From assembly GCA_963719465.1 (NCBI GenBank), contig OY970386.1, positions 981,789 to 1,045,788 of the forward strand: a stretch of 64,000 nucleotides of DNA, given 5' to 3'. The translations under genes and the position numbers were made by a program. The first letter of the stretch is position 1, and each line of letters starts with the position of its first letter. Under the pieces are notes generated by a model, which was not told the origin of the DNA, searched no databases, and was given only the letters and a program-made list of their open reading frames with translations. Source of the stretch: an uncultured Chloroflexia bacterium. Lineage in GTDB: Bacteria > Chloroflexota > Dehalococcoidia > DSTF01 > JALHUB01. Below are positions 1-64,000 of the stretch, piece after piece.

Positions 1-79
1 AAGGAAAGCGAACGCTTCTGGCACAAATAAGACGCGCGCCGAGCCGCGAGCCGAAGAAGGCGGCGGAGGCTGATAAGCG

Positions 80-580
80 CTAGCGCAGCCGGAACGTTGG
101 TTTCCGGACCATCTCGCCCATAGCGGCGTCGCGCAGTTTCTGGCAGGCGCCTTTCAACTGGTCCAGCTCGCGGGCGCCGAGCTTGGCGAAAAGCTTCTCG
201 CTTGCGGCGTTGGCGACGCCGAAGGCTTCCTGGAACTTCTTGCGGCCCTTGTCCGTGAATTCGACGAGCCTCTTGCGGCGGTCCTTCGGGTCGCCGTGGG
301 TGTTCACCCAGCCCTTGGCCTCGGTGCGATCTACCAATCCGGTCAGGCTGTTCGGCTCTTTCACCATCCAGGAGGCGAGCTCACTGATAGCCAGCGGTCG
401 CCGCTCGTAGGCGAGGAGGGCGAGCAGTTGCAGTTGAGGCAGCGATATGCCGTGGGGAATGATTGACAGCTCCTGCACTTTGAACACCGCGTTGTAAGCC
501 TCATAGAGCGAGTACCAGTTGCCCAGCACCTTTTCTTTGTCCTGAGGCTTTACTTTTACAGCCCGCGTCCTTGTTGCCAC
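80..580 (-). CDS. MarR family transcriptional regulator
   Basis: 166 aa. Winged-HTH MarR signature (LTxxQxxxL...DRRxxxxxLTxxG). Divergent from the second MarR at 858. Confidence 0.85.
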   Translation of the reverse strand: MATRTRAVKVKPQDKEKVLGNWYSLYEAYNAVFKVQELSIIPHGISLPQLQLLALLAYERRPLAISELASWMVKEPNSLTGLVDRTEAKGWVNTHGDPKDRRKRLVEFTDKGRKKFQEAFGVANAASEKLFAKLGARELDQLKGACQKLRDAAMGEMVRKPTFRLR

Positions 581-857
581 TTGTCAACCTCCGTTCTTGG
601 TGATACGCTCGACAGGACAATTCTTTAGTGGGACTTTAGCCAAACCGCGGCAGCCCGCCGCCAATTCTGCCGTAATGCTGATTCTTAATCCTGAACGTCC
701 TCGGTCGACCTCTTCTCATACAGCTTACTTTCATTCCTACCTCCAATGCTTCCGGCTGTCAAGTAGAGCTCTCGACTGTAGACTACTAAACGTTGTTGCT
801 TTATTGCCAAAATGCACCATATAATGACAACATCAGAATTCAAAATAAGGAACCGAG

Positions 858-1310
858 ATGAATACTGAACCTTCCCCCCAGAACGGCGCTGAAGAACCCC
901 TGTTGTTATCGGCGGCTTATGTCATCATGCGCAAGCATACAGAGCGCGCGCTTGCACGGTGGAACCTCACCGTGACGCAGGCGCTCACCCTTGGCATCCT
1001 TGACGGCATGAAGTCTTCCATCATGGTAAGCCGGCTGGCCCGCCTGCTCATCCAGGAAAGTCCGAGCACGAGCACGCTGGTTGACCGGATGGTGGAGCGC
1101 GGCCTTGTCGACAGGCTTCCCGATCCGAAGGACCGGCGCAAGGCGCTCATCAAGCTGACCCGAAAGGGCCGGGCGCTGCTCAACGAGGTGCGGCCGCAAC
1201 TGCGAACGGCCACTGAGGAGTTGTTCGCGCCTCTGTCCAAAAACCAGCGGGCAGGCTTGACCGACGCTCTGCGCACGTTCAGGGACGCGAACATCCGCCG
1301 CCTGAAGTAG
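858..1310 (+). CDS. MarR family transcriptional regulator
   Basis: 150 aa. MarR wHTH motif (DPKDRRKALIKLTRKG). Paralogue of the MarR at 25988. Confidence 0.85.
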   Translation: MNTEPSPQNGAEEPLLLSAAYVIMRKHTERALARWNLTVTQALTLGILDGMKSSIMVSRLARLLIQESPSTSTLVDRMVERGLVDRLPDPKDRRKALIKLTRKGRALLNEVRPQLRTATEELFAPLSKNQRAGLTDALRTFRDANIRRLK

Positions 1311-1320
1311 CAGGCGGTAG

Positions 1321-1980: not shown

Positions 1981-1983
1981 ACG

Positions 1984-3255: not shown

Positions 3256-3262
3256 CGCGGCC

Positions 3263-4007
3263 TCATTTGGCTGGCTGCTCGGCGGTGGCAGGCGCCGGCA
3301 CGTTCATTGCCGATCTGTCCTGGAAAGCAACGGGCGTGTTAGGCTCATCGCTTACGACCTGGCCGTCGCGCAGCTTCACTATACGGCGAGTGTGATAGGC
3401 GACTTCGAGGTCATGGGTCACGAAAGCGACGGTTATGCCCAGGTCGCGGTTCAGCGCCTCGAAAAGTCCCATGATCTCATGGCTGGTGTTCGTATCGAGG
3501 GCGCCGGTAGGCTCATCGGCGAGAAGAAGCGTCGGGCGGCTGACGATGGCACGCGCGATAGCCACCCGTTGCTGCTCGCCGCCGGAAAGCTGTGTCGGAC
3601 GGTGATGCACGCGCGTCGCGAGCCCCACCTCGACGAGCGCCTGTCGGGCGACCTTTCCCCGGTTGTGGGCTCCGCGATAGACAAGCGGCACCTCTACCTG
3701 CTCCAAAGCGGTCAGTCGGGGCAGAAGGTTGAAGCTCTGGAACACGAAGCCGATACGGCGGTTGCGGATGCGAGCGAGGGCACCGTCGCTGAGGCTGCCG
3801 ACTGTCACGCCGTCGAGGCTGTACCTACCGTTTGTCGGGAACGTCCAGGCAGCCGACGATGTTCATGAGGGTCGACTTGCCTGAGCCGGAGGGCCCGATT
3901 ATGGCTATGAACTCGCCGTCTTCGATCTGCAGGCTGAGAGAGCGGAGGGCGTAGATCGGGATGTCGCCCGTGCGGTAGATCTTGTCGATGTTTTCCAGCG
4001 TGATCAC
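3263..4007 (-). pseudogene. ABC transporter ATP-binding protein (MacB/LolD-like), interrupted by a +1 frameshift
   Basis: N-terminal 60 aa (Walker [10 protein letters not shown]) in ORF 3825..4007. The Q-loop, LSGGQ, Walker B and H-loop lie in ORF 3263..3808 in another frame. On the minus-strand reading, GACAAACGGTAGG (around 3826) creates an in-frame TAG; removing one T restores ...VPDKRRYSLDG.... Confidence 0.8.
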
Positions 4008-4020
4008 GGTCGTGCCCGGG

Positions 4021-5970: not shown

Positions 5971-6078
5971 TAGGTCTAGCAGGTCGGGGGCTTTGCAGTC
6001 AAGGTTGTCGTGATGGATGTGACTTTTGGCTTGCCTCCGCCGGTGCTATGATCGGCGAATCGGACAGAAGCAAGCTCC

Positions 6079-8846: not shown

Positions 8847-9597
8847 TTATTCGATGGCGAAGACGACCTGCACGGTGATATCGACGTCGAGCTGGCCCGT
8901 CTCGATGGGCGTCGACGGCCCGGCACCGGTAGCGGCGCCGAGGGGTGCCATGGCCGGCACGGGCTGAACGTTCGTACCCTCTGAGATGGATATCGGCGCG
9001 CCGAGCTTAACGCCCGCCGTATCGGCGATGCGCTGGGCGCGGGCCTTCGCGTCGGTCACCGCCTCGCCGCGCGCCTGGTCTTGCAGCGTCTCCGGGTTGT
9101 CGATGGTGAAGGTTATGCCCTGTACCTGGACGATGTCGCCGCCGGCCGCCGTCACGTCGTCGAGCACCTTGCTCGTGTTGTCGAACGTCGCGCACCTTGA
9201 CGGTCACTGTGTTGGTCACCCGATAGCCGATCAGCTTCGGCGTTCCGCTCTGCGGGTAGCTGTACTCCGGGGAGATGTCGTACTGGGTCGTCTGGACGTC
9301 CTTCTCATCGACGCCGTCGTTCTTGATGGCGTTGACGACGTTTTGCATGGTGCTGGCCGCATCGTCGCGCGCGTCCTTGACCGTCGCCTTCACCGTGCTG
9401 ACGCCGAGGCTCAACACGGCGGTGTCGGGAACGCCGCTGGCCTTCCCTTCGCCGCTGACGGTGATCCCCTGAGGGGTCGAGCCGCTGTCGGTGGCGGCGA
9501 GGCTCACCTTTTCCGTGCCGCAGGCGCTGCCCAGGGCCGCGAGCAAGCCGAGCCCGAGCAGGCCGACGATTCCGATGTACTTGCTGTTCTTGTTCAT
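8847..9597 (-). pseudogene. SIMPL domain (DUF541/BP26-like) secreted protein, frameshifted
   Basis: N-terminal part (signal peptide, MNKNSKYIGIV...RVTNTVTVKVRDV) is in ORF 9007..9678 and the C-terminal part (TFDNTSKVLDDVTAAGGDIVQVQGITF...) is in ORF 8847..9167. A one-base frame change sits near 9165-9175. AAGGAGAA RBS before the ATG at 9597. Confidence 0.75.
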
Positions 9598-14706: not shown

Positions 14707-15600
14707 CTACCAGGCAGGGCCAGTGTCGACCACGCTATTGTGTGTCAGCCTCGTCTGATCGCTGCCATCGGCGTTCATTATGTAGATCTCGTCGTTGCCG
14801 TCCCGGTCGCTCGCAAAGGCGATCTTGGCGCCGTCGGGCGACCACGTGGGAAAGACGTTGTTCCCCAGGTCGTTGGTCAAGTTCGTCTGGCCGCTGCCGT
14901 CGGGGTTCATCACGTAGATCTCCTCGTTGCCGTCCCGGTTGCTCATGAAGGCGATCTTCGAGCCATCGGGTGACCAGGCGGGCAGGGCATCAACACCCGC
15001 ACTGTGGGTCAGATTCTTCTGGCCATTGCCGTTCGCCTTCATCACATATATCTCGTCGTTGCCGTCCCGGTCGCTCGTGAAGGCTATCTTGGAGCCGTCC
15101 GGCGACCAGGCCGGGACCTGATCGTTCGCTGCGTTGTTTGTGAGCCGAGTCTGACCGGCGCCGTCAGCGTTCATCACGTAGATCTCGTCGTTGCCGTTTC
15201 GGTCGCTCGTGAAGGCGATCTTCGAGCCGTCAGGCGACCAGGTTGGCAAGATATCGTTCGCGCCGCTGTCGGTGAGCCGCGTCACGTTGCTGCCGTCGGC
15301 GCTCATGACGTAGATACTGAAGGCGCCGTCGCGGTTGCTCTCGAAGGCGATCTGCTTCATGTCCGGCGACCAGGCAGGGGAAGTATCATCCGCGGTGTTG
15401 TCCGTGAGGCGGGTCTTCGGGCCGGCGGCGTCAGCATTCATCACATAGATCTCTAAGTTGCCGTCCCGGTTGCTCACGAAGGCGATCTTGGCGGTGTGCC
15501 ACGACACGCAGCCGGACAGAAGGAAAGGCAGGACAGCACCAATAAGAACAGGAATAACCAACCTATAGCGGGGACGGCTCCTTCCGTTGAACATATCCAT
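14707..15600 (-). CDS. TolB-like PD40 beta-propeller lipoprotein (copy 1 of a tandem pair)
   Basis: 297 aa. LSGC lipobox followed by ~6 PD40 repeats ([27 protein letters not shown]). Near-identical to the next gene. Confidence 0.75.
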
Positions 15601-15643
15601 CTCCTTTGGCTAGCACCGTAGGATCGGCCTGACCGACCGGCAG

Positions 15644-16537
15644 CTACCAGGCAGGGTCAGTGTCGACCACGCTATTGTGCGTCAGCCGCGTCTGATCGCT
15701 GCCGTCGGCGTTCATGATGTAGATCTCATCATTGCCGTCCCGGTCGCTTGTGAAGGCGATCTTGACGCCGTCGGGCGACCAGGAGGGAAACATGTCGTTC
15801 CCCGGGTCATTGGTCAAGTTCGTCTGGCCGCTGCCGTCGGGGTTCATCACGTAGATCTCCGCGTTGCCGTCCCGGTCGCTCATGAAGGCGATCTTGGAGC
15901 CGTCGGGCGACCAGGTGGGCATCAAGTCATCAGCGGCACTGTCGGTCAGGTCAATCTGGTGATTGCCATTCGCGTTCATCACGTAGATCTCCTGGTTGCC
16001 GTTCCGGTCGCTCATGAAGGCGATCTTGGAGCCGTCGGGCGACCAGGTGGGGTGCCGATCGCTCGCTGGGTTGTTGGTGAGCCGAGTCTGGCCGGTGCCG
16101 TCGGCATTCATCACGTAGATCTCGTCATTGCCGTCCCGGTCGCTCGTGAAGGCGATCTTGGAGCCGTCGGGTGACCAGGCGGGCATCTGATCGGTTGCGC
16201 CGTTGTTGGTGAGCCGAGTCTGACCGCTGCCGTCGGCATTCATCACGTAGATTTCGCCGTTGCCGTCCCGGTCGCTCGTGAAGGCGATCTGCTTGCCGTC
16301 CGGCGACCAGGCAGGGTAGATATCAGCCGCGGCGTTGTTGGTGAGACGGGTCTTCGGGCCAGCGGCGTCAGCGTTCATCACATAGATCTCTTGATTGCCG
16401 TCTCGGTTGCTCGTAAACGCGATCGTAGCGGTGCGCCATGACACGCAGCCGGACAGAAGCAAAGGCAGTACGGCGCCAAGAACAAGGGCAATGATTAGCC
16501 GATGGGGGGAACGGCTCCTTCCGTTGAACATATCCAC
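15644..16537 (-). CDS. TolB-like PD40 beta-propeller lipoprotein (copy 2 of a tandem pair)
   Basis: 297 aa. Same architecture as copy 1. The ~937-bp tandem duplication includes the upstream leader. Confidence 0.75.
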   Translation of the reverse strand: MDMFNGRSRSPHRLIIALVLGAVLPLLLSGCVSWRTATIAFTSNRDGNQEIYVMNADAAGPKTRLTNNAAADIYPAWSPDGKQIAFTSDRDGNGEIYVMNADGSGQTRLTNNGATDQMPAWSPDGSKIAFTSDRDGNDEIYVMNADGTGQTRLTNNPASDRHPTWSPDGSKIAFMSDRNGNQEIYVMNANGNHQIDLTDSAADDLMPTWSPDGSKIAFMSDRDGNAEIYVMNPDGSGQTNLTNDPGNDMFPSWSPDGVKIAFTSDRDGNDEIYIMNADGSDQTRLTHNSVVDTDPAW

Positions 16538-27136: not shown

Positions 27137-28388
27137 CTATTCAAGCCAGATGACGCCGATCGCGCTTGCCTCGGCGGCCCAGCCCTTGACGGTGTTTGTC
27201 TGAACCAGCCACCAGCGGAAGCCGCCGGCATCGACGGGGCCGTCCTTGATTGTCACCCTCGTTCCGTCTGTCAAGCAGCCGACGATGTTGGCGTAGTCGG
27301 ACGGCGCGTCTCTGACGTTGAGGCAGGACTCGGTGTTCGCGACTTTCGCCCGCGAGCCGTTGTGGAACTTCGGCGCGACTGTCGGTGATGGCGTGGGCGT
27401 TGGCCTCGCCACCTGTGAACCGGGCGGATTTGCCTTCAGCAGCGGCCGAGACGTCGGTGTTCGTAACGCCGAACCGCCAGGCGGAAACGCAGCCCATTCC
27501 AATCGCATAGGCGTGAGTCAGGAAGTTCACCCAGGCGTCGAGCGTTGAGTCGCCCTGGCCGACCGGCTGGATGGGAAGGCCGTAGCCGCCGAACATGCTG
27601 GCGGAGACATCGAGGAGGAATTCGGGGCAGATGCCGGGCGACCCCGGATCGTAGCCGGCGCCCTTGAAGTCGTCGACATTGTCCGAAGTGTTGAACGTCT
27701 CCCAGTAGATCATCGGCGCGATGATCTGCGCGATAGAAACGAACTGGGCCATCGGGATGCGGGGCATAACCCAGGGCCGCGGCTCGACGCAGAGGCTGAC
27801 CACGGCATTCGGCTGCTGGCGACGGAACTCGCTGGCGAAGGTTGCGGCGGTTTGCGGCGTTCCGGCCCAGTAGCCGGCCCAGGGCTCGAGGTCGATCACT
27901 ATGCTTCGGGCGCCGGCGCCGATGACCTGCGCGCACATCTTCGCCTCGGTCGTGGGGTCGACGCCGTTGAGCACGCAGTAGGCGTGGAAGGGAACGTTGT
28001 TGTTCTCGAAGTAGTTGGCCAGCTTCTGCACCTGCGCCGGGCCGGTGACGGCCTGCGAGGACTTATCCCAGTCCCCCATCCACTCCGTGCCGTTGTGCGT
28101 CTTGAGGATGATCCCGAGGTTGTTTTGCGACAAGACGGAGGCGAGCTTCTGGGGCGTGCCGTCGGTGCTGAACTGCCAGACCCAGGCCAAGTGAGTGGCA
28201 GGAATGACCTTCTTGTCGCTCACGGGTTCGACCGGTGGAAGGCAACTGACGGTTACCGCGGCGGCGCCGGCCATCGCGGAGAGAGCGAGCAGCCGGCGTC
28301 GGGTGATGTGGTACTCGAGCAGAGAGAGGCCGTTGGTCTTGCCTGAAGGTTCGAAGTCTCCCATACCACCTCTATCCCTTTCCTTCAA
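27137..28388 (-). pseudogene. Tat-secreted GH25-like TIM-barrel (putative muramidase) fused to a PT linker and SH3b domain; frameshifted near 27390-27410
   Basis: Twin-arginine signal (TRRRLLALSAMAGAAA). The domain with ILKTHNG / FHAYCV / IDLEPW blocks loosely resembles GH25. The SH3b-like C-terminus (CLNVRDAPSDYANIVGCL...GFRWWLVQ) lies in a different frame (ORF 27137..27508). Confidence 0.5.
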
Positions 28389-44279: not shown

Positions 44280-44308
44280 TTGACAATCCCCCGTTCTGGT
44301 GCTAAATT
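44280..44308 (+). promoter_or_regulatory. sigma-70-type promoter (TTGACA-17-TAAATT)
   Basis: TTGACA at 44280..44285. TAAATT at 44303..44308, 17-nt spacer. Confidence 0.5.
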
Positions 44309-44317
44309 GCCATCAGG

Positions 44318-44498
44318 CCTAGCTCGTCAGTCGCGGTGGGCGGCGACGAGACGGGGGAACCGAAGGCAGCATGGGGTGTACTCGCTTGGAGCGAGAGGGC
44401 AGTCTCTTTCAGCCCTAACCCGACAGCTAACCTCGTAGGCCACTGAAAGAGGGCTGGTTCCAAACAAGGCGGCCGGAGCCAACTCCTCCGGCTTTTTT
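44318..44498 (+). promoter_or_regulatory. candidate cyclic-di-AMP riboswitch (ydaO/kimA class) with intrinsic terminator, upstream of otsA
   Basis: Contains ACGGGGGAACCGAAGG, GGGGUGUACUC and CCCUAACCCGACAGCUAACCUCGUAGGC. I recall these as the conserved ACGGGGA / GGGGUGAAUCC / CCGAACCCGACAGCUAACC blocks of ydaO RNAs. A long-range closing helix (GGAACC...GGUUCC) is present. Terminator GCCGGAG-CCAA-CTCCGGC plus T6 at 44472..44498. Confidence 0.6.
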
Positions 44499-44607
44499 GC
44501 ACCCTCGTGTCCTGCCTGAATGGCGGACAGGCCCGGCCCGGTCGGTTGCGTGTATCTATATCGCTAAGGTGGGAGCGATACCCCGCGACATGCAAAAGGA
44601 GGCCGAC

Positions 44608-46191
44608 ATGGCACCTCGCGATCTCTCCGACTTTCCGCCCTTATCCGTCATCCGGCGCAGTTCAAGTCCACTCATCGTCGTCAGCAACCGCGGCCCCTTC
44701 GAGCACTATCGAGACGCCGGCGGTGTCCTGGCACGGAGGCCCACGAGCGGGGGCGTCGCCGTCGCGCTCTCCAGCATTTTCGGGCGGCAGGAGTTGACGT
44801 GGGTCGTCGGCGCTGTTGGCGATGTTGACCGCGAGCTGGCAATGCGCGACTTCCGCCGCTTTTCTTTTGGCGACGGGCATCGCCTCTGTTTCGCGTCGAC
44901 GGATTCGCACTCATACGATCTCTTCTATCGCACCTTCAGCAATCCGATTCTCTGGTTCCTGCAGCACTCGCTATGGCATCTGCTCGACGGACGGCCGAAC
45001 TTGAGGCAAGAGATCGTGCGGTCCTGGGAGGAAGGCTACGTGCCGGTAAACGCGGCCTTCGCCGCCGCGGTCTGCGACGAGATCGATGACGCGCGCGGGC
45101 CCGCCCGAGTCATGCTCCACGACTACCATCTCTACCTGGCACCACTACTCATCCGCGAGCGTCACCCGGAAGCTCAGCTCCAGCACTTCTGCCACATCCC
45201 CTGGCCGGGGCCGGAGGCCTGGCGCGTGCTGCCGGAATACGTCATCGCCCGCATCTGCGAGGGCATGCTGGCCAACGACAGCGTCGCTTTCCAGACGGAG
45301 GAATCGAAGCGCAACTTCGCGCTGACCTGCCTCGCATATCTTCCTGACACGACAGTCGATCTGGCAGAGACTGCGATCAGCCACCGGGAACGGTCGACTG
45401 GTATCTTTGCCAATCCGATATCGGTGGACGTGTTCGACCTGAGGCGGAAGCTCATCTCGCCGAAAGTGCAGGCCTACCGGCAGGCGCTGGTTGGCGAAGA
45501 TGACATAAGGACAATCGTTTGCGTCGACCGTCTGGACCCGGCAAAGAATGTCGCCGGCGCGCTGAAGGCGTTTGACCTCCTCCTTCAGCGCCATCCCGAA
45601 TGGTCGGGCAAGGTCCGGATGCTCGCCTTCCTGGTGCCGTCGCGGGTAGCGATCCCCGAGTACCAGACGTATCGGGACAAGGTCTTTACGCTCGTTGACG
45701 AGATAAACTCGCGACACGGCGACGGGCGTTGGCAGCCGCTAACGGTCTTCTACGAACAGAACCGAACCCAGGCGCTTGCCGGCTTGAGCCTATACGACGT
45801 GCTCATCGCCAACTCCATAGCCGACGGCATGAACCTTGTGGCCAAGGAAGGGCCCGTCTTGAACGGGCGCGACGGCGTCCTGGTGCTTTCGACGGCGGTG
45901 GGTGCGGCGCGCGAACTCGGCGGCGCAGCGCTGACCGTCGAGGCCGGGGACATCGAAGGGACCACCGAAGCGCTCAAACAGGCGCTGTCGATGGACGCTT
46001 CGGAGCGCCGGCAGCGGGCGCGGCTGCTGCGACAGACCATCGCGCGCCACGACATCAACGATTGGTTGGAGACGCAGATGGCGGCGTTCGGCGAACGTTC
46101 GGCGGAGATCCTTCCGGTGCCCGCATCGCTGCTCACCCGCCCGCCCTCCCGCGAGGAGCCACCCGCGCTCATCGCCGGCGGAATCTCTTGA
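44608..46191 (+). CDS. otsA: alpha,alpha-trehalose-phosphate synthase (UDP-forming), GT20
   Basis: ATG after AAGGAGG. GT20 N-terminal block VVSNRGPF and the overall length. Confidence 0.85.
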   Translation: MAPRDLSDFPPLSVIRRSSSPLIVVSNRGPFEHYRDAGGVLARRPTSGGVAVALSSIFGRQELTWVVGAVGDVDRELAMRDFRRFSFGDGHRLCFASTDSHSYDLFYRTFSNPILWFLQHSLWHLLDGRPNLRQEIVRSWEEGYVPVNAAFAAAVCDEIDDARGPARVMLHDYHLYLAPLLIRERHPEAQLQHFCHIPWPGPEAWRVLPEYVIARICEGMLANDSVAFQTEESKRNFALTCLAYLPDTTVDLAETAISHRERSTGIFANPISVDVFDLRRKLISPKVQAYRQALVGEDDIRTIVCVDRLDPAKNVAGALKAFDLLLQRHPEWSGKVRMLAFLVPSRVAIPEYQTYRDKVFTLVDEINSRHGDGRWQPLTVFYEQNRTQALAGLSLYDVLIANSIADGMNLVAKEGPVLNGRDGVLVLSTAVGAARELGGAALTVEAGDIEGTTEALKQALSMDASERRQRARLLRQTIARHDINDWLETQMAAFGERSAEILPVPASLLTRPPSREEPPALIAGGIS

Positions 46192-46273: not shown

Positions 46274-47905
<1,632 letters not shown>

Positions 47906-47996
47906 GATGGAGGTCGGGGGGCGAGCGTCGGAAGCGTTTGATGGAGGTGGTTTGACGCCGGCATTCGCGCGTTCGGCGGGCATTTGCAGTATTTGC

Positions 47997-48104
47997 TTGA
48001 AAACAAGAAGTAGATGCTGTATCATACATTCGGCCGCGAGTACTACTGCACTTTTCCCTCTGTGTTTTCTCTTGAGGCCCCAACATAAATCCGAGGTTTG
48101 AACG
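47997..48104 (+). promoter_or_regulatory. rho promoter (TTGAAA-17-TATCAT) and C/U-rich 5' leader
   Basis: -35 at 47997..48002 and -10 at 48020..48025. Leader CACUUUUCCCUCUGUGUUUUCUCUUG looks rut-like, consistent with rho autoregulation. Confidence 0.5.
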
Positions 48105-49385
48105 ATGAAGCCAGGCGGCGAACTTAACATTGCTGAGCTAGAGACCAGGACGCGCGAGGACCTGATGGAGATCGCCAAGGAGCTTGGAATCTCCGGCTAC
48201 AGCGCACTCAAGAAGCAGGACCTTATCTTCCGCCTGCTCCAGGCCCAGACGGAGCGGGAGGGCAACATATTCAGCGGCGGCGTGCTGGAGATCGTCGACG
48301 ACGGCTACGGCTTCCTCCGCGGCGAAAGCCTCCTGCCCTCGCTGAACGACGTTTACGTGTCGCAGTCGCAGATCCGACGCTTCGCGCTGCGCACGGGCGA
48401 CTATGTGACCGGCCAGGTCCGTCCCCCGAAGGACAGCGAGCGCTACTACGGGCTGCTTCGCGTGGAGGCGGTGAACGGCCTCGACCCGGAGGTCGCGAAG
48501 GGCCGTCCTTACTTCGAGAGCTTGACAGCCATCTTCCCCAACCGCCTCTTCAACCTGGAGACGACGCCGGACAAGCTTTCCGCGCGCGTCATCAACCTTA
48601 TCTCGCCCATCGGTCGCGGCCAGCGCGGCCTTATTGTCTCGCCGCCGAAAGCGGGCAAGACGTTCCTGCTGAAGGCGATAGCCAACGGCATAACGGCCAA
48701 CTACAACGACGTGCACCTCATGGTTCTGCTCATCGGCGAGCGGCCGGAGGAAGTGACGGACATGCGACGCTCCGTCAACGGCGAAGTCATCGCGTCCACC
48801 TTCGACGAGCCGGTGGAGGACCACACGCGCGTCGCCGACATGGGGCTGGAGCGCGCGAAGAGGCTGGTCGAGTGCGGCACGGACGTTGTCGTCCTGCTGG
48901 ACAGCATCACGCGTCTCACCCGCGCCTACAACCTGGCGATGCCGACGAGCGGTCGCACGCTTTCCGGCGGCATCGACCCGATCGCTCTCCACCCGCCGAA
49001 GCGCTTCTTCGGCGCCGCCCGCAACACCGAGGAGAGCGGCAGCCTCACGATCATTGGCACCTGTCTGGTCGACACCGGCAGCCGCATGGACGAGGTGATC
49101 TACGAGGAGTTCAAGGGCACGGGTAACATGGAGATCCACCTCGACCGCCGCCTGGCCGAACGACGCATGTGGCCGGCAATCGATATCCACCGCAGCGGCA
49201 CCCGTCGCGAAGAGCTGCTGCTGGACGAGGAGACGCTACGTCAGGTCTGGCTCGTGCGCCGAATGACGTTGATGATCAGCCAGAACGCGCCCAATCCCAC
49301 CGAGGCGACGGAACGGCTGCTGGAGCGGCTGGCGCGGACCCGCAGTAATGACGAGTTCCTGGCGACTCTGAAGCAAGAAATCTAA
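48105..49385 (+). CDS. rho: transcription termination factor Rho
   Basis: N-terminal RNA-binding (CSD-like) domain. Walker [17 protein letters not shown]- and R-loops. Confidence 0.95.
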
Positions 49386-51670: not shown

Positions 51671-52483
51671 GTGTTGGTGGAAAGACGGGCCCGCATTTTG
51701 GGTCATATCGTAAGTGAATACGTACACACAGCGCTGCCGGTAGGTTCTGAGACCATCGTCCGCAAGTACGGCCTGCCCATCTCTCCGGCAACGGTGCGTA
51801 ACGAAATGGCGCGCTTGGAGGAGGAAGGCTACATAACGCATCCGCACACCTCCGCCGGCCGCATCCCTTCCGACATGGGGTATCGCTTCTACGTCGAAAG
51901 TCTGATGGAGGAAGAGGACCTGCCCTGGTATGAGAAGCAGTCGATCCAGAGGCGGTTGCGGATGGCGGCCAGGGCGGCTTCCGGTCGCGCTGCGCTGCTG
52001 GCGGAGCGGGCGCGAATCGCGGCCACGGTGCTGGCGGAGAGCGTGCGCAACGCCGCGGTCGCGACGGCGCCCCGTTCGCCCGGGATCGACGAAGAGGACG
52101 ACGCGCTGTACGACCGGGCTTACCTGGAAGGGCTGCGAAACGTCCTCAGCCAGCCGGAGTTCTCGCAGACGGAGGACGTCATCGACCTCGTCTGCGTGCT
52201 CGAAGAGGGCAACCTGATGCGGGCGATGCCGCTCGACAACCTCTCCGGCGAGGACGTGACCGTCGTCATCGGCGAGGAGAACCGCGAGGACGTTATGCGG
52301 CGCTGCAGCGTCGTACTGACGCGCTATGGAGTGCCGGGCACGGCCGTCGGCGTGCTGGCGGTCCTGGGGCCGACGCGGATGGCTTATTCGCGCGTCATTC
52401 CTACGGTACGTTACCTCTCACTCCTGATGGGCGATTCTCGTCGCCCAGGGCTGAGCGCCGGCCAAACAGGCGCGGGGGCAAGG
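51671..52483 (+). CDS. hrcA: heat-inducible transcription repressor HrcA (no in-frame stop; reads through into grpE)
   Basis: GTG start. N-terminal wHTH (ILGHIVSEYVHTALPVGSETIV...ATVRNEMARLEEEGYITHPHTSAGRIPSDMGYR) and a C-terminal ...GPTRMAYSRVIPTVRYL block. Continuous ORF with the next gene. Confidence 0.8.
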
Positions 52484-53107
52484 ATGTCCGAGCAAGAGAA
52501 AAACAACCAGCATCCGTCTCACGTCGACAAGCGCAGCTCCACCGGCGGCAAGCACCACGACGCCACGGAGAACCTGAGGCATCAGGTTGACGAGGCGAGG
52601 AAGAAGGCACATGAGGCGATAGGTCCGGAGGCACAGCTCGAAGAGGAGCGGAAGAAGGCGGAAGGCTACCTGGCGAGCTGGCAACGGACAGCGGCCGACT
52701 TCCAGAACTATAAACGTCGCACGGAGCAGGAGCGTCAGGAGCTGGCGCTGTTCGCCAACGCGTCGCTCATCATCAACCTGCTGCCTATCGTCGACGACCT
52801 GGAGCGCGCTCTCCAGAGCGTCGACGCGCATCTCGCCGGCCTGACGTGGGTTGACGGCATCGGCCTGATCTATCGCAAGTTCCGCGCCGTGCTGGAGGCA
52901 AGCGGCGTCAAGGAGATCCAGACGGAAGGCCAGGACTTCGACCCGCGCTACCACGAGGCGACAATGTTCGGCGAAGGCGAGGACGGGAAGGTGGTCGCCG
53001 AGGTGCAGAAGGGGTACATGCTCGGCGACCGCGTGCTGCGTCCGGCGATGGTCGTCGTCGGCCGCGGCAAGCCATCGGAGCAGCCGCCCGAAGGCCAGGC
53101 GGGCTGA
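52484..53107 (+). CDS. grpE: nucleotide exchange factor GrpE (own RBS and ATG, but in frame with hrcA)
   Basis: GGGGGCAAGG before the ATG. GrpE motifs ADFQNYKRR and the C-terminal beta-sheet domain (GYMLGDRVLRPAMVVV). Confidence 0.85.
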   Translation: MSEQEKNNQHPSHVDKRSSTGGKHHDATENLRHQVDEARKKAHEAIGPEAQLEEERKKAEGYLASWQRTAADFQNYKRRTEQERQELALFANASLIINLLPIVDDLERALQSVDAHLAGLTWVDGIGLIYRKFRAVLEASGVKEIQTEGQDFDPRYHEATMFGEGEDGKVVAEVQKGYMLGDRVLRPAMVVVGRGKPSEQPPEGQAG

Positions 53108-53448: not shown

Positions 53449-55342
<1,894 letters not shown>

Positions 55343-55346
55343 ACGG

Positions 55347-56430
55347 ATGCCATCGGACGGAGCCAATGTCCCGCAGGCAATTGTGTCGAAGCTTGGGCAC
55401 CTCATAGACGGCGCCCAAAGCGTTTTGTCCCGACTTGATCGCGGAGAAGAACTCAGTTCCGTTCTGTCTCAAGCCAAGTCAGTAGTAGACGAGTATGGGA
55501 ATCGCATCCACGCTTCCTGGCTGGAATTTGAGATATATGGTTTGATGGGCGCTCCCCTCATGAAGATGCCGCTCACCGACGCAGACCAGAAGGCGGGTGC
55601 GTACCTCTTTTCCAGGCTCCATTCCGCGAGCGATCCAACGACGGTGACGGCTGAGGGGACACTTGAGCACTGGGACGAGGGGAAGAAGACGGCACCGGAA
55701 CGCGACCAGGTCATGTATTCATCTGTGGCGGAAATCGAGCGCGGGTTAGCGTCATGGAATGAAGCGAAGGGGAAACTGCAGGAGGAGTCAGTCACGAGGC
55801 GCGCGTTGGATCAATTCCTCCAAGTCAAGGTTCTCAATGAAGAGCGCGCTCGGGTATTGAGCAACGTCCGCGCCTACCTCTACGACTACATCGCCAAGAT
55901 TCTGCAGGTGGGCGATAACGGAGCAGGAGAATCAGGCACTTCTCGGTCCCGACTACCGCATTGTGGTCGAGAGCTTGGATGCTCTGGAGTCCGGCGTAGG
56001 CGATCATTTGGCCGGTGCGCTAGAGCTACTAAGGAATCCCAATCCAGCCCTATGGTCCGCTGCGGCACTTGTCTGTCGAAATGTTGTGCTGGCTCTCGGC
56101 CGGACAATGTGGAAAGTGAAGGGAGAAACGTACGATTCTCAGCTAGCTGGAAGGTCCATCGACACAAGGGGCGACAAGGAGAAGAATTGCCTCCTGGCGT
56201 TCATTGACGTTTGCCATCGGCGCGCTGCCAACGACGATGCCAAACGTGAGCTTGAGGAAGCGTGCGAGTTAACCAACACTATCTACGAGCGCGGGTCCAA
56301 GGGGAAAGGCGGTCGAAGTTTGCATCACGAGGAAGCCCAGAACCTGGTTGTCGACACCTTTCGCCTTGTCTCTTCTCTTCAGCGCCGCACGGGTCTCCTG
56401 CCCGTAACCGATCTCTCTTCGTATCAATAG
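55347..56430 (+). pseudogene. hypothetical alpha-helical protein, lower GC than surroundings, frameshifted near 55915-55945
   Basis: Frame 1 (55347..~55930) and frame 3 (ORF 55963..56430, extendable upstream to ...ENQALLGPDYRIVVES) both look protein-like. No recognised domain. GC is visibly lower (~50%). Occupies the position usually held by dnaJ. Confidence 0.4.
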
Positions 56431-56511
56431 GCGATGGCGGTTGCGCCCGGGCGGTTGGCCGCCAAATCTGCCTTATGCTATGATTGCGCCCAGCACGCTT
56501 GGAGGAGAAAC

Positions 56512-57276: not shown

Positions 57277-57286
57277 AGGCCGGCCG

Positions 57287-58102: not shown

Positions 58103-59010
58103 TGGACGAGCGGGCAAGCGAGGAACCTCCGCCAGGGGGCAGCGTCGCCCCCGACGCCTACGACAGTCGCTATTTCTTTGCCTCGTGCGAAGGTTATAAG
58201 GAGTTCCGCACGTCCGGCGGGCGCAGGCTGAGCAGCCGCTTCCAAAAGGCGCTACGATTCGCGAAGATAAAGCCGGGCGAACGCGTCCTCAACGTCGGCT
58301 GCGGCCGTGGCGAGATCGTGCTCCATGCCGCCATTCAGGGCGCGGACGCCGTCGGCATCGACTACGCCGAGGAAGCGGTGCGCATAGCGGCCGAGTCGCT
58401 GGCGCTGGCGCCGGAAGACGTGCGGCGGCGGGCCTCGGTGCGGCTCATGAACGCCCGCGTGTTGGAATTCGACGCCGACTCCTTCGACGTTGCCCTGATG
58501 AGCGACATCGTCGAGCACCTCTACCCGCCGGAGCTGGCGGAGGCGCTGCGGGAGACCTGCCGCGTGCTGAAGCCCGGAGGACGGCTCATCGTTCACACCA
58601 GCCCCAACCGCCTCTTCTACAACGTCACTTTCCCTCTATACGTCCGGCGTATTCATCTGATCGTACGCCGGTTGGCAGACCTCGCCCACTACGGGAGCTA
58701 CGTAATCGGGCCCAGCCTGCCGGTCGGAAGGCAATATCCGCGCACCGACGATGAGTTGCGCGTCCACGTCAACGAGCAGACTGAGTCGGGATTGAAGCAG
58801 GCGATCAGCGACGCCGGCTTCCGCGTCCGCAAGACCGAGCGCTGGGAGATCCCGCATCAGCTCCCCTACATCTCGCGCCAGATGACCATCGAGCTGATGC
58901 TACTGGACAGCGTGCGCTATCTGCGTCCGTTCAGCTTCCTGCCACCGCTGAACCGGCTCTTCACAAACCACATCTGGGTCATCGCGGAGAAGCCGCAGGC
59001 CGGCCTCTAG
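58102..59010 (+). CDS. class I SAM-dependent methyltransferase
   Basis: Motif I VLNVGCGRG and motif II/III. Confidence 0.8.
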   Translation: MDERASEEPPPGGSVAPDAYDSRYFFASCEGYKEFRTSGGRRLSSRFQKALRFAKIKPGERVLNVGCGRGEIVLHAAIQGADAVGIDYAEEAVRIAAESLALAPEDVRRRASVRLMNARVLEFDADSFDVALMSDIVEHLYPPELAEALRETCRVLKPGGRLIVHTSPNRLFYNVTFPLYVRRIHLIVRRLADLAHYGSYVIGPSLPVGRQYPRTDDELRVHVNEQTESGLKQAISDAGFRVRKTERWEIPHQLPYISRQMTIELMLLDSVRYLRPFSFLPPLNRLFTNHIWVIAEKPQAGL

Positions 59011-59320
59011 GACGTTGGAGCGGAACTGACCGCCGTCGAGGTCACAATCGCCGTCTTGCGGGCCGGGCCGAGGTCCATCTCAGCCTCTTCCTCGCCAACA
59101 TAGCACAAGCCTATTGCACGAAAAGTGGTTCGTATTGACTTGATATTTGATGCTTGCTACGATTTCGCTCGCCCCCGAGATCGCGCTCGGCCTGGTGGCA
59201 GCAGGGGCGTTGCCTCCAATCTGAGGCTGGGGTTATGATGAATTCGGCTGTGAAGATTAGCACACACCATTGCTCATGGTGATGCTGCGTCTCGGTGCTG
59301 CGGCTTAGAGGAGGCAGAAA

Positions 59321-61399
59321 GTGGCACCTTCAAACGAATTACCGGGCATCATATTCTTCTACCTCATAATCGTTGGCTTCAGTGCCTTCTTTCTGCTGAC
59401 GATTGCCGCGCGGCTCATCCCGTTCGTTCAGGCGAAGGGCGTCCCTCAATTCGACCACCTGCCGCAGCGCATCGGCGATTTCCTCTTCATAATGGTAGGG
59501 CAGTGGCGGTTTTGGCGCCGGAAGTACTGGTACTCCGGCATTCTGCATCCGCTTATCTTCTGGGGCTTCCTGGTCCTGCTCATTCGCAGCCTGAACTTGT
59601 TGCTGAGCGGTGTCGCCGACCCGCTCAGCCTCCAGCACCTGCCCGGCGACGTGTTCAACTATTGGCGGCCGGTGATGGACGCGTTCAACGTGCTGGTCAT
59701 GGTCGGCCTGGTGATGGGCGCTTACGAGCGATTCTTCGTCAAGCCGCAGCGCCTCACGTTGAACGTGGACGCCTGGCGGATCATCGGCCTCATCTTTTTC
59801 TTGATGGTCACCGACATTCTCGCCAACAGCTTCGAGCTTGACCTGGAGGCGAAGAAGGAAGCTTGGTCGTTCGTGGCTTACGGCGTTTCGGGCATCTGGA
59901 CCGGCATGGGCCTCTCCCACAATGCCATCGGTGACCTGCACGCGACTTTCTGGTACATGCACCTCGTCATTCTGTTCGGATTCCTCTGCTACCTCCCGTA
60001 CTCCAAGCACTCGCACGTGCTGACGGTAGCCTTCAACGTCTTCTTCCACAGCCGCGAGCGCACCGGCGTGCTCCAGCCCATCAACATCGAGGCGATGATG
60101 GAGAACGCCGAGGAAGGCCAGACTTTCGGCGTGGGCAAGGTTACAGACTTCAACTGGAAGTCGCTGCTCGACTTCATGACCTGCACCGAATGCGGCCGCT
60201 GCCAGTCCAACTGCCCCGCCTATCTGACGGATAAGGAGCTCTCTCCCAAAGAGATCGAACATCACGGCCGTATGGCCCTCCTTTCGAAAACGCCGACGCT
60301 CGGCTCGCTGCTGAAGGGCAAGCCGGCCACGGCGGGCGAGCCGCTTAACCTGGTCGACACCATGGGATTCGAATCGATCTGGGACTGCGTGACTTGCGGC
60401 TCCTGCATGTACTGGTGCCCCGTCTGCATCGAGCACGTGCCGGAGATCATCGACGTGCGTCGCTACCTCGTCATGGATGAGGCGCGCATGCCGGAGACGG
60501 CGCAGGCTACGCTGATGCAGATCGAGCAGCGCGGCCACCCCTGGCGCGGCACGCAGTTCTCCCGCTCGGACTGGATGCAGGGAATCAACGTCCCGCTGTT
60601 CGACGGCTCGCAGGAGTATTTGCTGTGGGTCGGCTGCACCGGCTCCCTCTCCGAGCGCAACATCCCGATCACGCAGTCGCTGGCCAGGCTGCTGCTGCAG
60701 GCCGGCGTTAGCTTCGGCGTCCTCGGCGAGGAAGAGACGTGCTGCGGCGATCCCGCGCGCCGTCTGGGCAATGAGTACCTCTTCCAGATGCAGGCACAGC
60801 AGGCGATCGAGATCATGAAGGCGAAAGGCGTGAAGAAGATCGTCACCGCCTGCCCGCACGGCTATAACACGATGCGCAACGAGTACCCCCAGTTCGACGG
60901 CAAGTTCGAGGTGATGCACCACACGGAGCTGCTCGACCAGCTTCTGAAGGAAGGCAAGCTCCAGCCGAAGCAGGGCATCGCCGAGACAATCGTCTACCAC
61001 GACTCCTGCTATCTGGCGCGCCACAACGAGATCGACGGGGCGCCACGGGACATCTTGAAGAGCATCCCGCAGGCGCACGTGGTGGAGATGGAGCGATCGC
61101 GGCAGACGACGTTCTGCTGCGGCGCCGGCGGCGGCCATATGTGGGTGGAGGAGAGCAGGGGGCAGCACATCGACCACGCCCGCACCGAGGAAGCGATGGG
61201 CACCGGCGCCAAGATCGTCGCGACGGCCTGCCCGTTCTGCATCCAGATGTTCGAGGACGGGATCCCGGCGCTGGAGCCCGACGAGGAGAAGCGGATGCGG
61301 GCGCAGGACGTCGCGGAGCTGCTGGAAGCCGCCGTTGGGCGCGAAGCGGGGCCGCCTCCTGCTGCCGCTCAGAGCGAAGAGGTGGGCGCCAGCCCCTAA
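59321..61399 (+). CDS. membrane-bound Fe-S oxidoreductase: NarI-like di-heme cytochrome b domain fused to an HdrD-like domain (2x[4Fe-4S] + CCG)
   Basis: 692 aa. N-terminal 5 TM with conserved His. Ferredoxin motifs CTECGRCQSNCP and CVTCGSCMYWCP. Two CCG domains (CCG, CPH..., CPFC). Immediately upstream of etfBA. Confidence 0.75.
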   Translation: MAPSNELPGIIFFYLIIVGFSAFFLLTIAARLIPFVQAKGVPQFDHLPQRIGDFLFIMVGQWRFWRRKYWYSGILHPLIFWGFLVLLIRSLNLLLSGVADPLSLQHLPGDVFNYWRPVMDAFNVLVMVGLVMGAYERFFVKPQRLTLNVDAWRIIGLIFFLMVTDILANSFELDLEAKKEAWSFVAYGVSGIWTGMGLSHNAIGDLHATFWYMHLVILFGFLCYLPYSKHSHVLTVAFNVFFHSRERTGVLQPINIEAMMENAEEGQTFGVGKVTDFNWKSLLDFMTCTECGRCQSNCPAYLTDKELSPKEIEHHGRMALLSKTPTLGSLLKGKPATAGEPLNLVDTMGFESIWDCVTCGSCMYWCPVCIEHVPEIIDVRRYLVMDEARMPETAQATLMQIEQRGHPWRGTQFSRSDWMQGINVPLFDGSQEYLLWVGCTGSLSERNIPITQSLARLLLQAGVSFGVLGEEETCCGDPARRLGNEYLFQMQAQQAIEIMKAKGVKKIVTACPHGYNTMRNEYPQFDGKFEVMHHTELLDQLLKEGKLQPKQGIAETIVYHDSCYLARHNEIDGAPRDILKSIPQAHVVEMERSRQTTFCCGAGGGHMWVEESRGQHIDHARTEEAMGTGAKIVATACPFCIQMFEDGIPALEPDEEKRMRAQDVAELLEAAVGREAGPPPAAAQSEEVGASP

Positions 61400-61471
61400 A
61401 TCACGACTGTTCACGGCAAAGCCGGGACCAGCATAAGAGAACAGAGTCGCGGACGAAGGAGGAAGTAGAAG

Positions 61472-62266
61472 ATGCCCTTGCACATCATAGCCTGCGTCAA
61501 ACAGGTGCCTGACCCGGAAGCCCCGGCCTCGTCGTTCAAAGTCGATGAGGCGGCGAAGAAGGTCGTTCCGGCGGCGGGCGTGGCGCCTGTAATCAGCCAG
61601 TTCGACGCGCTGGCAGTCGAAGCGGCCCTGCGAATCAAGGATGCCGCCGCGGACACCAAAGTCACGATCGTCAGCCTCGGTCCGGAAGGCGCACGCGATG
61701 TGATCAAGCACAGCCTGGCGATGGGCGCCGACGAGGGCGTCCTACTGACGGACAGCGCCTTCGATAACGGCGACAGCTACACGACGGCGCTTGCCCTCTC
61801 CAAGGCGATTCAGAAGATCGGCGACTTCAACCTGATCCTCTGCGGCCGCCAGGCGACCGACTGGGACGCCGGTGTCGTCGGCTACGGCATCGCCGAGATG
61901 CTTGGCGTGCCGAGCGTCAGCCTCGCCAAGTCCGTCAACATCCAGGACAGCAAGGTCGTCGTCGAGCGCGTGCTGATGGAGGGCTATGACACAGTGGAAG
62001 CGCCCCTGCCCGCGCTCGTCACCGTCAGCAACGAGCTGGGCGAGCCGCGCTACCCCAAGCTGCAGCAGATCATGATGGCTGCCCGCAAGCAGGTCACCGT
62101 ATGGGGCGCCGGCGACATCGGCTTCGCTCCCGACGGCACCCGCACTCATCTGGAGCGGCTCTACCAGCCGGTCAGCGAGATCGAGTGCGAGGTCGTCGAG
62201 GGCGAGACGCCGGACGAAGCGGCGCAGAAGCTTGCGCAGCGGCTGCGCGATCAGAAGATAATCTAG
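61472..62266 (+). CDS. etfB: electron transfer flavoprotein beta subunit
   Basis: Begins MPLHIIACVKQVPD. Confidence 0.9.
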   Translation: MPLHIIACVKQVPDPEAPASSFKVDEAAKKVVPAAGVAPVISQFDALAVEAALRIKDAAADTKVTIVSLGPEGARDVIKHSLAMGADEGVLLTDSAFDNGDSYTTALALSKAIQKIGDFNLILCGRQATDWDAGVVGYGIAEMLGVPSVSLAKSVNIQDSKVVVERVLMEGYDTVEAPLPALVTVSNELGEPRYPKLQQIMMAARKQVTVWGAGDIGFAPDGTRTHLERLYQPVSEIECEVVEGETPDEAAQKLAQRLRDQKII

Positions 62267-62297
62267 GCTCTGCCTACCAGAGATAAGGAGGGTTGAT

Positions 62298-63281
62298 ATG
62301 GCTAACGGAATCTTGGTTGCAGCCGAGGTAAGCGGCGGCGCAGTCGCTCCGATCACGTTCGAAGTCCTGGGCGCAGCCCGTCGTCTCGCCGACCAGAGGG
62401 GCGAACCGGTGCAGGCCGCGCTCATCGGCTCCGGCGTCGAAGGGCTGGCGAAGGACCTCATCGCTCAGGGCGCCGACCAGGTGTTCGTCGTCGACGAGCC
62501 GGCGCTGGCAAAGTACAGCTGTGACGGCTTCGTCGCGGCGATGGAGAAGGTGAACACCGCAGCGAGCCCGAGCGCGATACTCATGGGCCAGAGCGACCTG
62601 GGACGCGACCTGGGCCCGCGCCTGGCTTTCCGATTGGGGAGCACGGCCGCTATGGACTGCCTGAACGCTTCGGCGCAGGACGGCAAGATCATCGCTGAGA
62701 GGCCCTGTTACGGCGGCAATGCGCGGGTAAACCTTTCGTTCAAGACGTCGCCCGCCGTCATTTCGATCCGCTCGAAGGCGCAGGAGCCGCTGGCGCGCGA
62801 CGACTCGCGTCAGGGGCAGGTGACGAAGGTCGACGCCGGGATCGACGCGTCGGCCATCCGCGACAAGATCACCGGTCACCAGGAGGCCGCCGAGGAAGGC
62901 ATCCGCCTGGAGGACGCGGGCGTGATTGTGTGCGGCGGACGGGGCATCGGCAGCGCCGAAGGCTTCGGCATGCTGGAAGAGCTGGCAAAGGCGCTCGGCG
63001 GCGCCGTCGGCGCCACGCGCGCCGCCTGCGACAATGGCTGGCGGCCCGTATCCGAGCAGATCGGCCTGACCGGCAAGATCGTCGGGCCGACGCTCTACTT
63101 CGCGGTTGGCCTATCCGGCGCCAGCCAGCACATGGCGGGCTGCTCCGGCGCCAAGAACATCGTCGCCATCAACAAAGACCCGGAGGCAATGATATTCAAG
63201 TCGTCGCGCTTTGGCATCGTTGACGACTACAAGAAGGTGCTGCCGGCGCTCGTCGAGGCATGCCGCAAGCTGCGAGCATAG
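62298..63281 (+). CDS. etfA: electron transfer flavoprotein alpha subunit
   Basis: FAD-binding C-terminal domain (GGRGIGS...LYFAVGLSGASQH). Confidence 0.9.
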   Translation: MANGILVAAEVSGGAVAPITFEVLGAARRLADQRGEPVQAALIGSGVEGLAKDLIAQGADQVFVVDEPALAKYSCDGFVAAMEKVNTAASPSAILMGQSDLGRDLGPRLAFRLGSTAAMDCLNASAQDGKIIAERPCYGGNARVNLSFKTSPAVISIRSKAQEPLARDDSRQGQVTKVDAGIDASAIRDKITGHQEAAEEGIRLEDAGVIVCGGRGIGSAEGFGMLEELAKALGGAVGATRAACDNGWRPVSEQIGLTGKIVGPTLYFAVGLSGASQHMAGCSGAKNIVAINKDPEAMIFKSSRFGIVDDYKKVLPALVEACRKLRA

Positions 63282-63450
63282 CTTTTCGAAGGTCAATCCA
63301 GCGGCCGCTCTGCTCGCTCCCGGCGGGGCGGCCGTTGCTTTGCCTTCGACCCGTACGCAGCCGTTCTCTAATGCGCTATAGTTGCATTGACAGAGACTCG
63401 CGCGCGCAGATATCATCCCGTTCAGCACTCTCAGCCTGGAAGGGACTGCC

Positions 63451-64000
63451 ATGAGTAAACTCGGCGACAGGATACGAAAGACCATCCGCCAGGAGGCCGC
63501 GCCTATCGGCTTCCGCGCGGTCAGGCCGGCGAAGACGCCTCAACTGCTGACGGCAGTGCTCCTTGACGACGCAGACAAGGTCGCCCAGGCGGTTGCCGCT
63601 GACGCCGGCGTTCTCATTCTGAAAGACGCGAGGCCGGAAGATTTTGAAGCGGCGGCAGAAGCCGCGGGGGAAACGCCCCTGGGCGTCTGGCCGAAGACCA
63701 TCGACGCGGCGGACACGAAGGCGCTGATCGCGGCGTCAGCGGACTTCATCATCTTCGAAGGCGAATCCACGCCGGCGGCCGCTCTCCTGGAGGAGAAGAT
63801 CGGCTACGTGCTCGCGCTCAAGGACGGCGAGGACGACGACACGTATCTGCGCATCCTTGAGTCCGTCGCCCTCGATGCGGTCCTGCTGCCTGATTGGAAG
63901 GGGCCGCTCACGCTGAAGAAGCAGCTCGGCCTGCGCCGCGTTGCCGCTCTGGCGCGAAAGCCGTTAATGCTGCCGGTCGAGCCACCGGTCGAAAGCGCGG
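63451..64000 (+). CDS. hypothetical protein (partial; runs off the window end)
   Basis: ATG after GGAAGGG. Promoter-like TTGACA-18-TATCAT upstream (63378..63407). No recognised domain. Confidence 0.35.
   Translation, partial: MSKLGDRIRKTIRQEAAPIGFRAVRPAKTPQLLTAVLLDDADKVAQAVAADAGVLILKDARPEDFEAAAEAAGETPLGVWPKTIDAADTKALIAASADFIIFEGESTPAAALLEEKIGYVLALKDGEDDDTYLRILESVALDAVLLPDWKGPLTLKKQLGLRRVAALARKPLMLPVEPPVESA

Follow-up and report, generated by a model that had tools for sequence, protein, structure and literature searches.

Six single-base insertions that break genes in a soil Dehalococcoidia genome are very probably assembly consensus errors

Introduction

Are conserved genes of a soil Dehalococcoidia bacterium, dnaK among them, broken in the organism itself or only in the sequence assembled from it? 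The question is raised by a 64-kb stretch of DNA (the window, by which we mean the whole stretch analysed here), in which a first-pass annotation had reported five genes split between reading frames by apparent single-nucleotide indels, together with an hrcA gene that runs in frame into grpE. We compared the affected genes with their counterparts in SPRUCE 355, SPRUCE 654, MFD01299.bin.1.79, and MFD03726.bin.1.230, and more distant MAGs were added at the site in an ATPase gene. Two to seven relative loci were compared per site. The SPRUCE/JGI assemblies are presumed to be based on short reads.

Results

Among the approximately 58 genes of the window, six carry one extra nucleotide each. They encode a MacB-type ABC ATPase, a SIMPL protein, a TAT-signal/SH3b protein, HrcA, DnaK, and a 360-aa protein located after dnaK. 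All five of the gene splits reported earlier, and the hrcA–grpE read-through, are present in the sequence, 10–50 nt from the positions first given for them. The lesion is a +1 insertion at every site (6/6), and deletion of one base yields a full-length protein at each of the six. This frequency of broken genes (6/~58) is well above the level in an intact free-living genome, as the first-pass annotation had judged when it called the events far more numerous than a healthy genome would hold. No further uncompensated frame break was found in the GC3 frame plot, the protein comparisons with relatives, the DNA gap scan, or the Pfam coverage of the remaining genes. Nor did the same screens of the ~58 genes reveal a nonsense codon, a deletion, or any larger lesion. 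IS elements are absent from the window, and the other ~52 genes and the coding density look normal, as judged by Pfam coverage. A plain ORF-based frameshift screen was swamped by the conserved off-frame ORFs that are typical of high-GC DNA, and it was superseded by the GC3-filtered screen and the DNA gap scan. What looked like frame changes where genes meet (ribE/ribBA, DinB/dcd, and others) proved to be ordinary adjacent genes.

The extra base in dnaK (53449..55342, + strand) is a T at 53920 (GACGCC[T]GGCAAG). It separates codons 1–157 from codons 158–630, with the N-terminal 157 codons in one frame and the remaining 473 in the following one. The flanks match all three relatives over ~38 nt upstream and 12 nt downstream, which confirms the earlier assignment of a single inserted T in this gene. 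The T lies between C and G, outside any homopolymer. Corrected DnaK has 630 aa and is 96–97% identical across its full length to the intact DnaK of the relatives (96.8% upstream of the break vs 96.6% downstream), and GC3 in the "dead" part of the gene is 0.92 in the frame plot.

In hrcA (51671..52454, + strand), an extra T is present at 52435/52436 (GGCGAT[T]CTCGTC), where relatives read GGCGATCTCGTC...TGA. It is located seven codons upstream of the normal TGA (52452–52454), and the stop is lost from the frame, with read-through into grpE. The read-through described by the first-pass annotation is thus caused by a sixth single-base event. Corrected HrcA regains its normal stop; the HrcA proteins of relatives have 257–260 aa and a C-terminal end of ...LLMGDLVARG. 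grpE (52484..53107, + strand) is itself intact and matches the 198-aa GrpE of the relatives in a single frame, and its fusion to hrcA is apparent only.

The gene for the MacB-type ABC transporter ATPase (3263..4007, − strand) lies in two frames, with one extra base within 3836–3840. The site reads GACGTTCCCGAC in the window and GACGTGCC-GA in relatives, and the extra base is missing in seven of them. The base had been described as an inserted T. A single extra base is indeed present, but C fits equally well (sense-strand GACGT[T]CCCG or GTT[C]CCG), and the sequence does not decide between the two. The corrected ATPase matches Pfam ABC_tran in one stretch (1–136/137), and its identity to relatives is 87% upstream and 85% downstream of the break. 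The SIMPL (DUF541) lipoprotein gene (8847..9597, − strand) has its extra base at 9184/9185 (sense-strand GACGT[T]CGAC), where relatives have GACG-TCAAC or GACG-TAGAC; the base is missing in five relatives. The corrected protein matches the complete Pfam SIMPL model (1–205/205), with identities to relatives of 70% upstream and 95% downstream.

The TAT-signal protein (27137..28364, − strand) belongs to an uncharacterised family and has a C-terminal SH3_3 domain. The extra base is a sense-strand C at 27448 (GACGTCT[C]GGCC), inserted between T and G; the site reads GACGTCT[C]GGCCGCTG in the window and GACGTCT-GGCCGCTG in relatives. The homologs P0121 and P0122 are single proteins of 408–411 aa that read ...TNTDVWPLLKANPPG..., and identity to relatives is 85% upstream vs 79% downstream. 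This protein had been labelled GH25-like. Neither Pfam nor NCBIfam has a match for its N-terminal domain, and the label gives way to what is supported, namely the TAT signal and the SH3_3 C-terminus. The gene after dnaK (55347..56430, + strand; 360 aa, function unassigned) has a lower GC content of 56.5%. Its extra base lies at approximately 55900–55905 and is probably GAT[T]CTGC, and the two frames meet between AKI and RWA. Homologs are single proteins of 340–360 aa that cover 94–99% of the joined sequence.

Comparison with related genomes had been proposed by the first-pass annotation. Orthologs are intact in every relative locus fetched at the five comparable sites; at the sixth, after dnaK, the comparison is with the single-protein homologs. 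The relatives are different species with 80–92% DNA identity to the window. Their intact genes therefore show that the breaks are not ancestral, and not that the breaks are absent from the window's strain. An independent assembly of the same species was not found: a scan of the genome collection returned relatives only, at 88% identity or less, the protein collection has no DnaK closer than 97% identity, and a 40-mer spanning the dnaK site (exact or with the T optional) had no match in JGI metagenome contigs. Conservation is not lost downstream of the break in the four genes measured (DnaK, ATPase, TAT/SH3b, and SIMPL).

These comparisons bear on the view that the mutations are real and that the lineage, or its dominant strain, very recently inactivated six genes including dnaK in the course of ongoing gene decay. 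We consider this unlikely. The frameshifts do stand in the deposited record, and the window differs genuinely from relatives in gene content: transaldolase and CoA-transferase genes are missing, and the extra gene 3' of dnaK is found at that place in the window's genome only. The insertion sites are also not classical contexts for sequencing errors. However, none of the relatives fetched at the dnaK and hrcA loci shows a break there, and the downstream halves of the broken genes are conserved like the upstream halves and keep coding-type GC3. Bacterial gene decay is deletion-biased and leaves mixed lesion types, and the uniform +1 insertions are not the mixture expected of it. The normal coding density, the normal look of the other ~52 genes, and the absence of IS elements and large lesions also argue against decay. 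Frameshift pseudogenes in Mycobacterium leprae and in recent endosymbionts likewise interrupt many conserved genes in a short stretch, but the window has no mixed lesions, relaxed constraint, IS expansion, or reduced coding density, and the genes affected in it include essential chaperone genes.

Frame-breaking indels were not found in the SPRUCE/JGI assemblies at the compared loci. The sister MAG MFD03726.bin.1.230 has at least four in the same loci, and two of its overlapping contigs differ by 16 one-base indels; its private indels are mostly deletions. The "MFD" MAGs come from a nanopore-only project that used Flye and one round of Medaka (Microflora Danica mmlong2; PMC12313526). The public record of the window's own genome (NCBI, ENA) is a single contig of 2,314,715 bp. 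A contig of megabase scale from soil points to long-read assembly, and we infer that this genome was assembled from long reads and was not polished with short ones. Nanopore-only bins below ~40x coverage still need polishing (PMC9262707), and the six indels in 64 kb are roughly as many as such bins would be expected to carry.

Two proteins from the window's own record reproduce the breaks. P0123 (407 aa) has an out-of-frame TAT/SH3b tail identical to that of the window, and P0241 is a truncated 286-aa call of the post-dnaK gene with 100% identity to the window ORF. The unusual uniformity of the changes (all insertions, mostly T) might suggest that, once the record had been deposited, bases were planted in the window or corrupted as the data were handled. 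The match of both public proteins to the frameshifted ORFs refutes this for two of the six sites, and we find the idea scarcely credible.

In its classical form, nanopore error deletes bases from long homopolymers. The window has insertions, at runs of 1–3 bases, and the concentration in homopolymers expected of long-read errors is not seen. All six inserted bases are pyrimidines on the sense strand, and half of the insertions (3/6) lie within 3 nt 3' of GACGT. This context bias is not predicted by a simple noise model. It counts against consensus error, as do the departure from the classical error type and the mostly deletion-type private indels of the sister MAG. Speculatively, a C/T transition between co-assembled strains may have been collapsed into a two-base "TC" or "CT". 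Collapsed allelic variants are known to give rise to erroneous indels and seeming frameshifts in consensus sequences from long reads (Cosentino et al. 2021, PMC8445201). The window resembles these artefacts in that each site is compatible with a C/T transition spelled out as TC or CT, and in that at least three sites fall at the third codon position, where synonymous differences between strains are commonest; it differs in that approximately 55% of random insertions would also fit, which gives P ~0.02–0.08 for six of six. Alternatively, the sub-mechanism may be a context-specific base-calling error. The corrected sites hold GACGTC, GATC, or GCCGGC, but a role of methylation motifs was dropped as the main explanation because the window contains many intact sites (26 GACGTC, 294 GATC, and 141 GCCGGC) and short palindromes are too common to mean much.

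The local contexts also bear on the view that the insertions are genuine but do not silence the genes, which would be expressed by programmed +1 ribosomal frameshifting or by transcriptional slippage. The same +1 correction is needed at all six sites, and a +1 shift would restore each protein, as in frameshifting of the prfB/RF2 type. Three sites share GACGT, and the ATPase site has CCC-G, a Pro codon context that is +1-prone. However, the site contexts differ and share no slippery motif. The dnaK shift has neither a stop codon in frame nor a rare codon, and the 0 frame is open to 54906. Transcriptional slippage needs a long A/T run (9 or more), whereas no site has a run of more than 3 nt. Unlike programmed shifts of the prfB type, those required here are not conserved, the sister-species orthologs being unshifted, and the window has no conserved motif, stop codon, or Shine-Dalgarno-like stimulator. 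Recoding of either kind is, in our estimate, extremely improbable.

Discussion

We infer, with high confidence though short of proof, that the six frame breaks arose as errors in the assembly consensus and are not part of the organism's DNA. Several lines of evidence lead to this reading. One-base deletion restores full-length proteins and domain matches. All six lesions are +1 insertions, and no nonsense, deletion, or larger lesion accompanies them. The orthologs are intact, and conservation and GC3 are kept past the breaks. Finally, comparable defects occur in the nanopore-only sister MAG and none in the SPRUCE/JGI relatives. The consensus step would have written one base too many at approximately one position per 10 kb, and gene callers, working from that sequence, would have rendered these genes as fragments or fusions. 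In the organism itself, the macB-type ATPase, SIMPL, TAT/SH3b, hrcA, dnaK, and post-dnaK genes are most likely all intact, and reads from it would be expected not to carry the insertions. The first-pass annotation had preferred systematic indel error in the assembly (long-read or low coverage) over gene decay. The preference for assembly error is supported by our analysis, while "systematic" is weakly shown because the errors are not of the homopolymer type.

The window resembles the indel-bearing MAGs assembled from nanopore reads only and examined by IDEEL-type tests for truncated proteins (PMC9262707, PMC12313526). In both, approximately one indel per 10 kb splits or fuses a gene; as in such MAGs, the window's breaks vanish on one-base correction, are absent from the presumed short-read assemblies of relatives, and lie in a megabase-scale contig. 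The difference is that the window's errors are all insertions and none is in a long homopolymer, with the window's sequencing platform itself being deduced. There is a very slim chance that the extra bases are real, reflecting either a dominant population with broken dnaK and hrcA or efficient +1 recoding at GACGT-type contexts; the latter, if true, would mean widespread +1 frameshifting in a bacterium.

The biological significance of the six breaks is small. Their consequence lies in annotation. Approximately 10% of the genes in this stretch are open to mis-annotation: they could pass for pseudogenes or fragments, or for an HrcA-GrpE fusion that is false. At an unchanged rate, approximately 200 such errors would be present across the 2.3-Mb genome. 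Public protein collections already contain P0123 and P0241, both truncated ORFs. For developers of polishing tools, a pattern that consists of insertions only, lies outside homopolymers, and shows a context bias may be of interest. For this organism, polishing or frameshift-aware gene calling is needed before its genome is used for metabolic reconstruction, completeness estimates, pseudogene counts, or protein databases.

Results

The genes in the window (GC content, 64.5%; one tRNA-Lys and one c-di-AMP riboswitch) are nearest to those of metagenome-assembled Dehalococcoidia (Chloroflexota) of peat and soil origin. Gene order is shared with the relatives for most of the window, and DNA identity is 80–92%; the relatives are therefore different species. 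Corrected DnaK is 96–97% identical to that of SPRUCE peat MAGs and Microflora Danica (MFD) MAGs. In the relatives, pyrG and rho are separated by a transaldolase gene that is not present in the window (47905–48105 vs 4035–4721 in L003; L numbers denote fetched loci of related MAGs). An overlapping pair of CoA_transf_3 ORFs (260 and 219 aa) is also confined to the relatives (window 59010–59321 vs L003 14511–15945). This split of a CoA-transferase is probably real because the SPRUCE/JGI assemblies show it too.

We located the lesions by three-frame translation and placed each against relatives or homologues. Frames were split at every place reported in the first-pass annotation, and the exact positions were refined by this comparison. 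The extra T in dnaK lies at 53920 (GACGCC[T]GGCAAG), and the sequence flanking it (~38 nt on the 5' side, 12 nt on the 3' side) is identical to all three relatives compared. The reading of hrcA into grpE without a stop, also noticed initially, is caused by a sixth single-base insertion: a T added at 52435/52436 (GGCGAT[T]CTCGTC; relatives, GGCGATCTCGTCGCCCGGGGCTGA) puts the normal stop at 52452–52454 out of frame, and the ORF continues into grpE. SIMPL has one base too many at 9184/9185. The ABC ATPase has one surplus base within 3836–3840, which may be T or C; an inserted T had been proposed for both dnaK and the ATPase, and is confirmed in dnaK but ambiguous in the ATPase. The TAT-signal/SH3b protein, whose earlier "GH25" label has no Pfam or NCBIfam support, has a C inserted at 27448 (sense strand), where homologues read ...TNTDVWPLLKANPPG... 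in a single frame. In the gene after dnaK, the frame junction falls between AKI and RWA (about 55900–55905), and roughly 50 homologues each consist of one 340–360-aa protein that covers both window frames.

Deletion of one base yields a 630-aa DnaK, an ABC_tran match over positions 1–136 of 137 in the ATPase, a complete SIMPL match (1–205 of 205), and an HrcA with a C-terminus normal for the clade. Six of the ~58 window genes are affected, each by a single-base insertion. Four independent screens (a GC3 frame plot, a GC3-filtered protein comparison with relatives in both directions, a DNA gap scan, and Pfam coverage for genes without fetched relatives) found no further uncompensated frame breaks or in-frame stops in the window. 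Where the frame seemed to change elsewhere, ordinary boundaries between genes account for it.

The window is faithful to the public record. P0123 (407 aa), a protein from the public collection, is identical to the frameshifted TAT/SH3b ORF, including the tail that is read out of frame. From the same collection, P0241 (286 aa) is a truncated call of the gene after dnaK with 100% identity to the window ORF. Both derive from one 2,314,715-bp contig (NCBI, ENA), and their matches rule out post-deposition alteration at two of the six sites.

HrcA is short across the clade (257–260 aa; window 51671–52454, L001 8030–8812, L003 8507–9280), while a typical HrcA has about 340 aa. It matches only positions 125–215 of the Pfam HrcA C-terminal model, and in every relative the central part of the usual protein seems to be absent. 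The 360-aa gene between dnaK and an SDR gene (55347–56430, + strand) has a GC content of 56.5% vs 64.5% and is found only in this genome; in the relatives, the SDR gene directly follows dnaK. Its family comprises about 50 proteins, mostly from Chloroflexota, without a Pfam domain. The N-terminus has weak AbiTii-like similarity (PADLOC E, 0.002–0.004), and the gene may be an acquired defence gene. A full-length c-di-AMP riboswitch (RF00379, 77.6 bits; 44306–44456, + strand) lies immediately 5' of a Glyco_transf_20 gene (trehalose-6-phosphate-synthase-like; 44497–46191), a position suggesting that an osmoprotectant pathway is under c-di-AMP control. Two tandem 297-aa paralogues (14707–16537, − strand) consist of PD40 beta-propeller repeats whose period is strictly 132 nt, with CCAGG recurring at that interval. 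A 119-aa ORF (40673–41032, + strand) matches part of the retropepsin-like Asp_protease_2 model (positions 9–65 of 90), and some DnaK homologues of the clade (P0060, P0063, and P0101) carry an N-terminal Asp_protease_2 fusion.

Discussion

The six frame breaks most likely reflect assembly indel errors and not the organism's own DNA, as the first-pass annotation had preferred. Natural gene decay is deletion-biased and mixes several lesion types. The spectrum here consists of +1 insertions only; nonsense mutations, deletions, and lesions of larger size are all absent, which is not what such decay would give. Segments downstream of the breaks show no drift. DnaK identity to relatives is 96.8% upstream of the break and 96.6% downstream, and GC3 remains 0.92 in the portion of the gene that the break would inactivate; the corresponding identities are 87 and 85% for the ATPase, 85 and 79% for TAT/SH3b, and 70 and 95% for SIMPL. 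Orthologues at all five sites open to comparison are intact in every relative fetched. Very recent pseudogenes are an unlikely reading; they would need six independent +1 insertions without any other lesion, with dnaK among the genes hit. Programmed +1 frameshifting or transcriptional slippage is highly improbable: the six sites share no motif, stop codon, or homopolymer, and the shifts are not conserved in orthologues.

Assembly error is also favoured by the contig itself, since a soil contig of 2.3 Mb was probably built from long reads. The closest relatives with large contigs are MFD bins, for which Flye was used to assemble nanopore reads, followed by a single round of Medaka but no short-read polishing (PMC12313526). 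Gene-fragmenting indels reportedly persist in nanopore-only bins whose coverage is less than about 40x (PMC9262707). The same class of defect is present in one MFD relative, MFD03726.bin.1.230, which has a dcd-ribD fusion (580-aa ORF; L082 6985–8727), broken metallo-beta-lactamase (MBL hydrolase) and CoA-transferase genes (L002 ~7334 and ~14758), and one more frame break (L008 ~15640). A 7.7-kb overlap between two contigs of this bin (L008 8925–16672 vs L010 1–7751) has 98.4% identity and 16 one-base indels, indicating that the bin also contains redundant or strain-variant contigs. No such frame breaks were seen in the SPRUCE/JGI assemblies, presumably short-read.

The insertions lie in runs of 1–3 nt, not in long homopolymers, and differ from the private indels of the sister MAG MFD03726.bin.1.230, which are mostly deletions. 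On the sense strand, each of the six extra bases is a pyrimidine regardless of gene orientation; three are found no more than 3 nt 3' of GACGT (nominal P 5e-5; ~0.03 corrected for 512 5-mers), and two share the context GAT[T]CT. One possible source of this bias is a systematic error in base-calling or consensus. An explanation by methylation motifs is weak, as most GACGTC, GATC, and GCCGGC sites in the window are intact. The sequence at every site also fits a C/T transition that was written out as two bases, a pattern expected for about 55% of random insertions as well. If co-assembled strains were collapsed, a C/T variant might be written in this way; collapse of alleles is known to produce indels (PMC8445201). 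Both the context bias and C/T allele collapse are leads. The six insertions matter as a warning about data quality, both in this MAG and in the truncated proteins that come from it.
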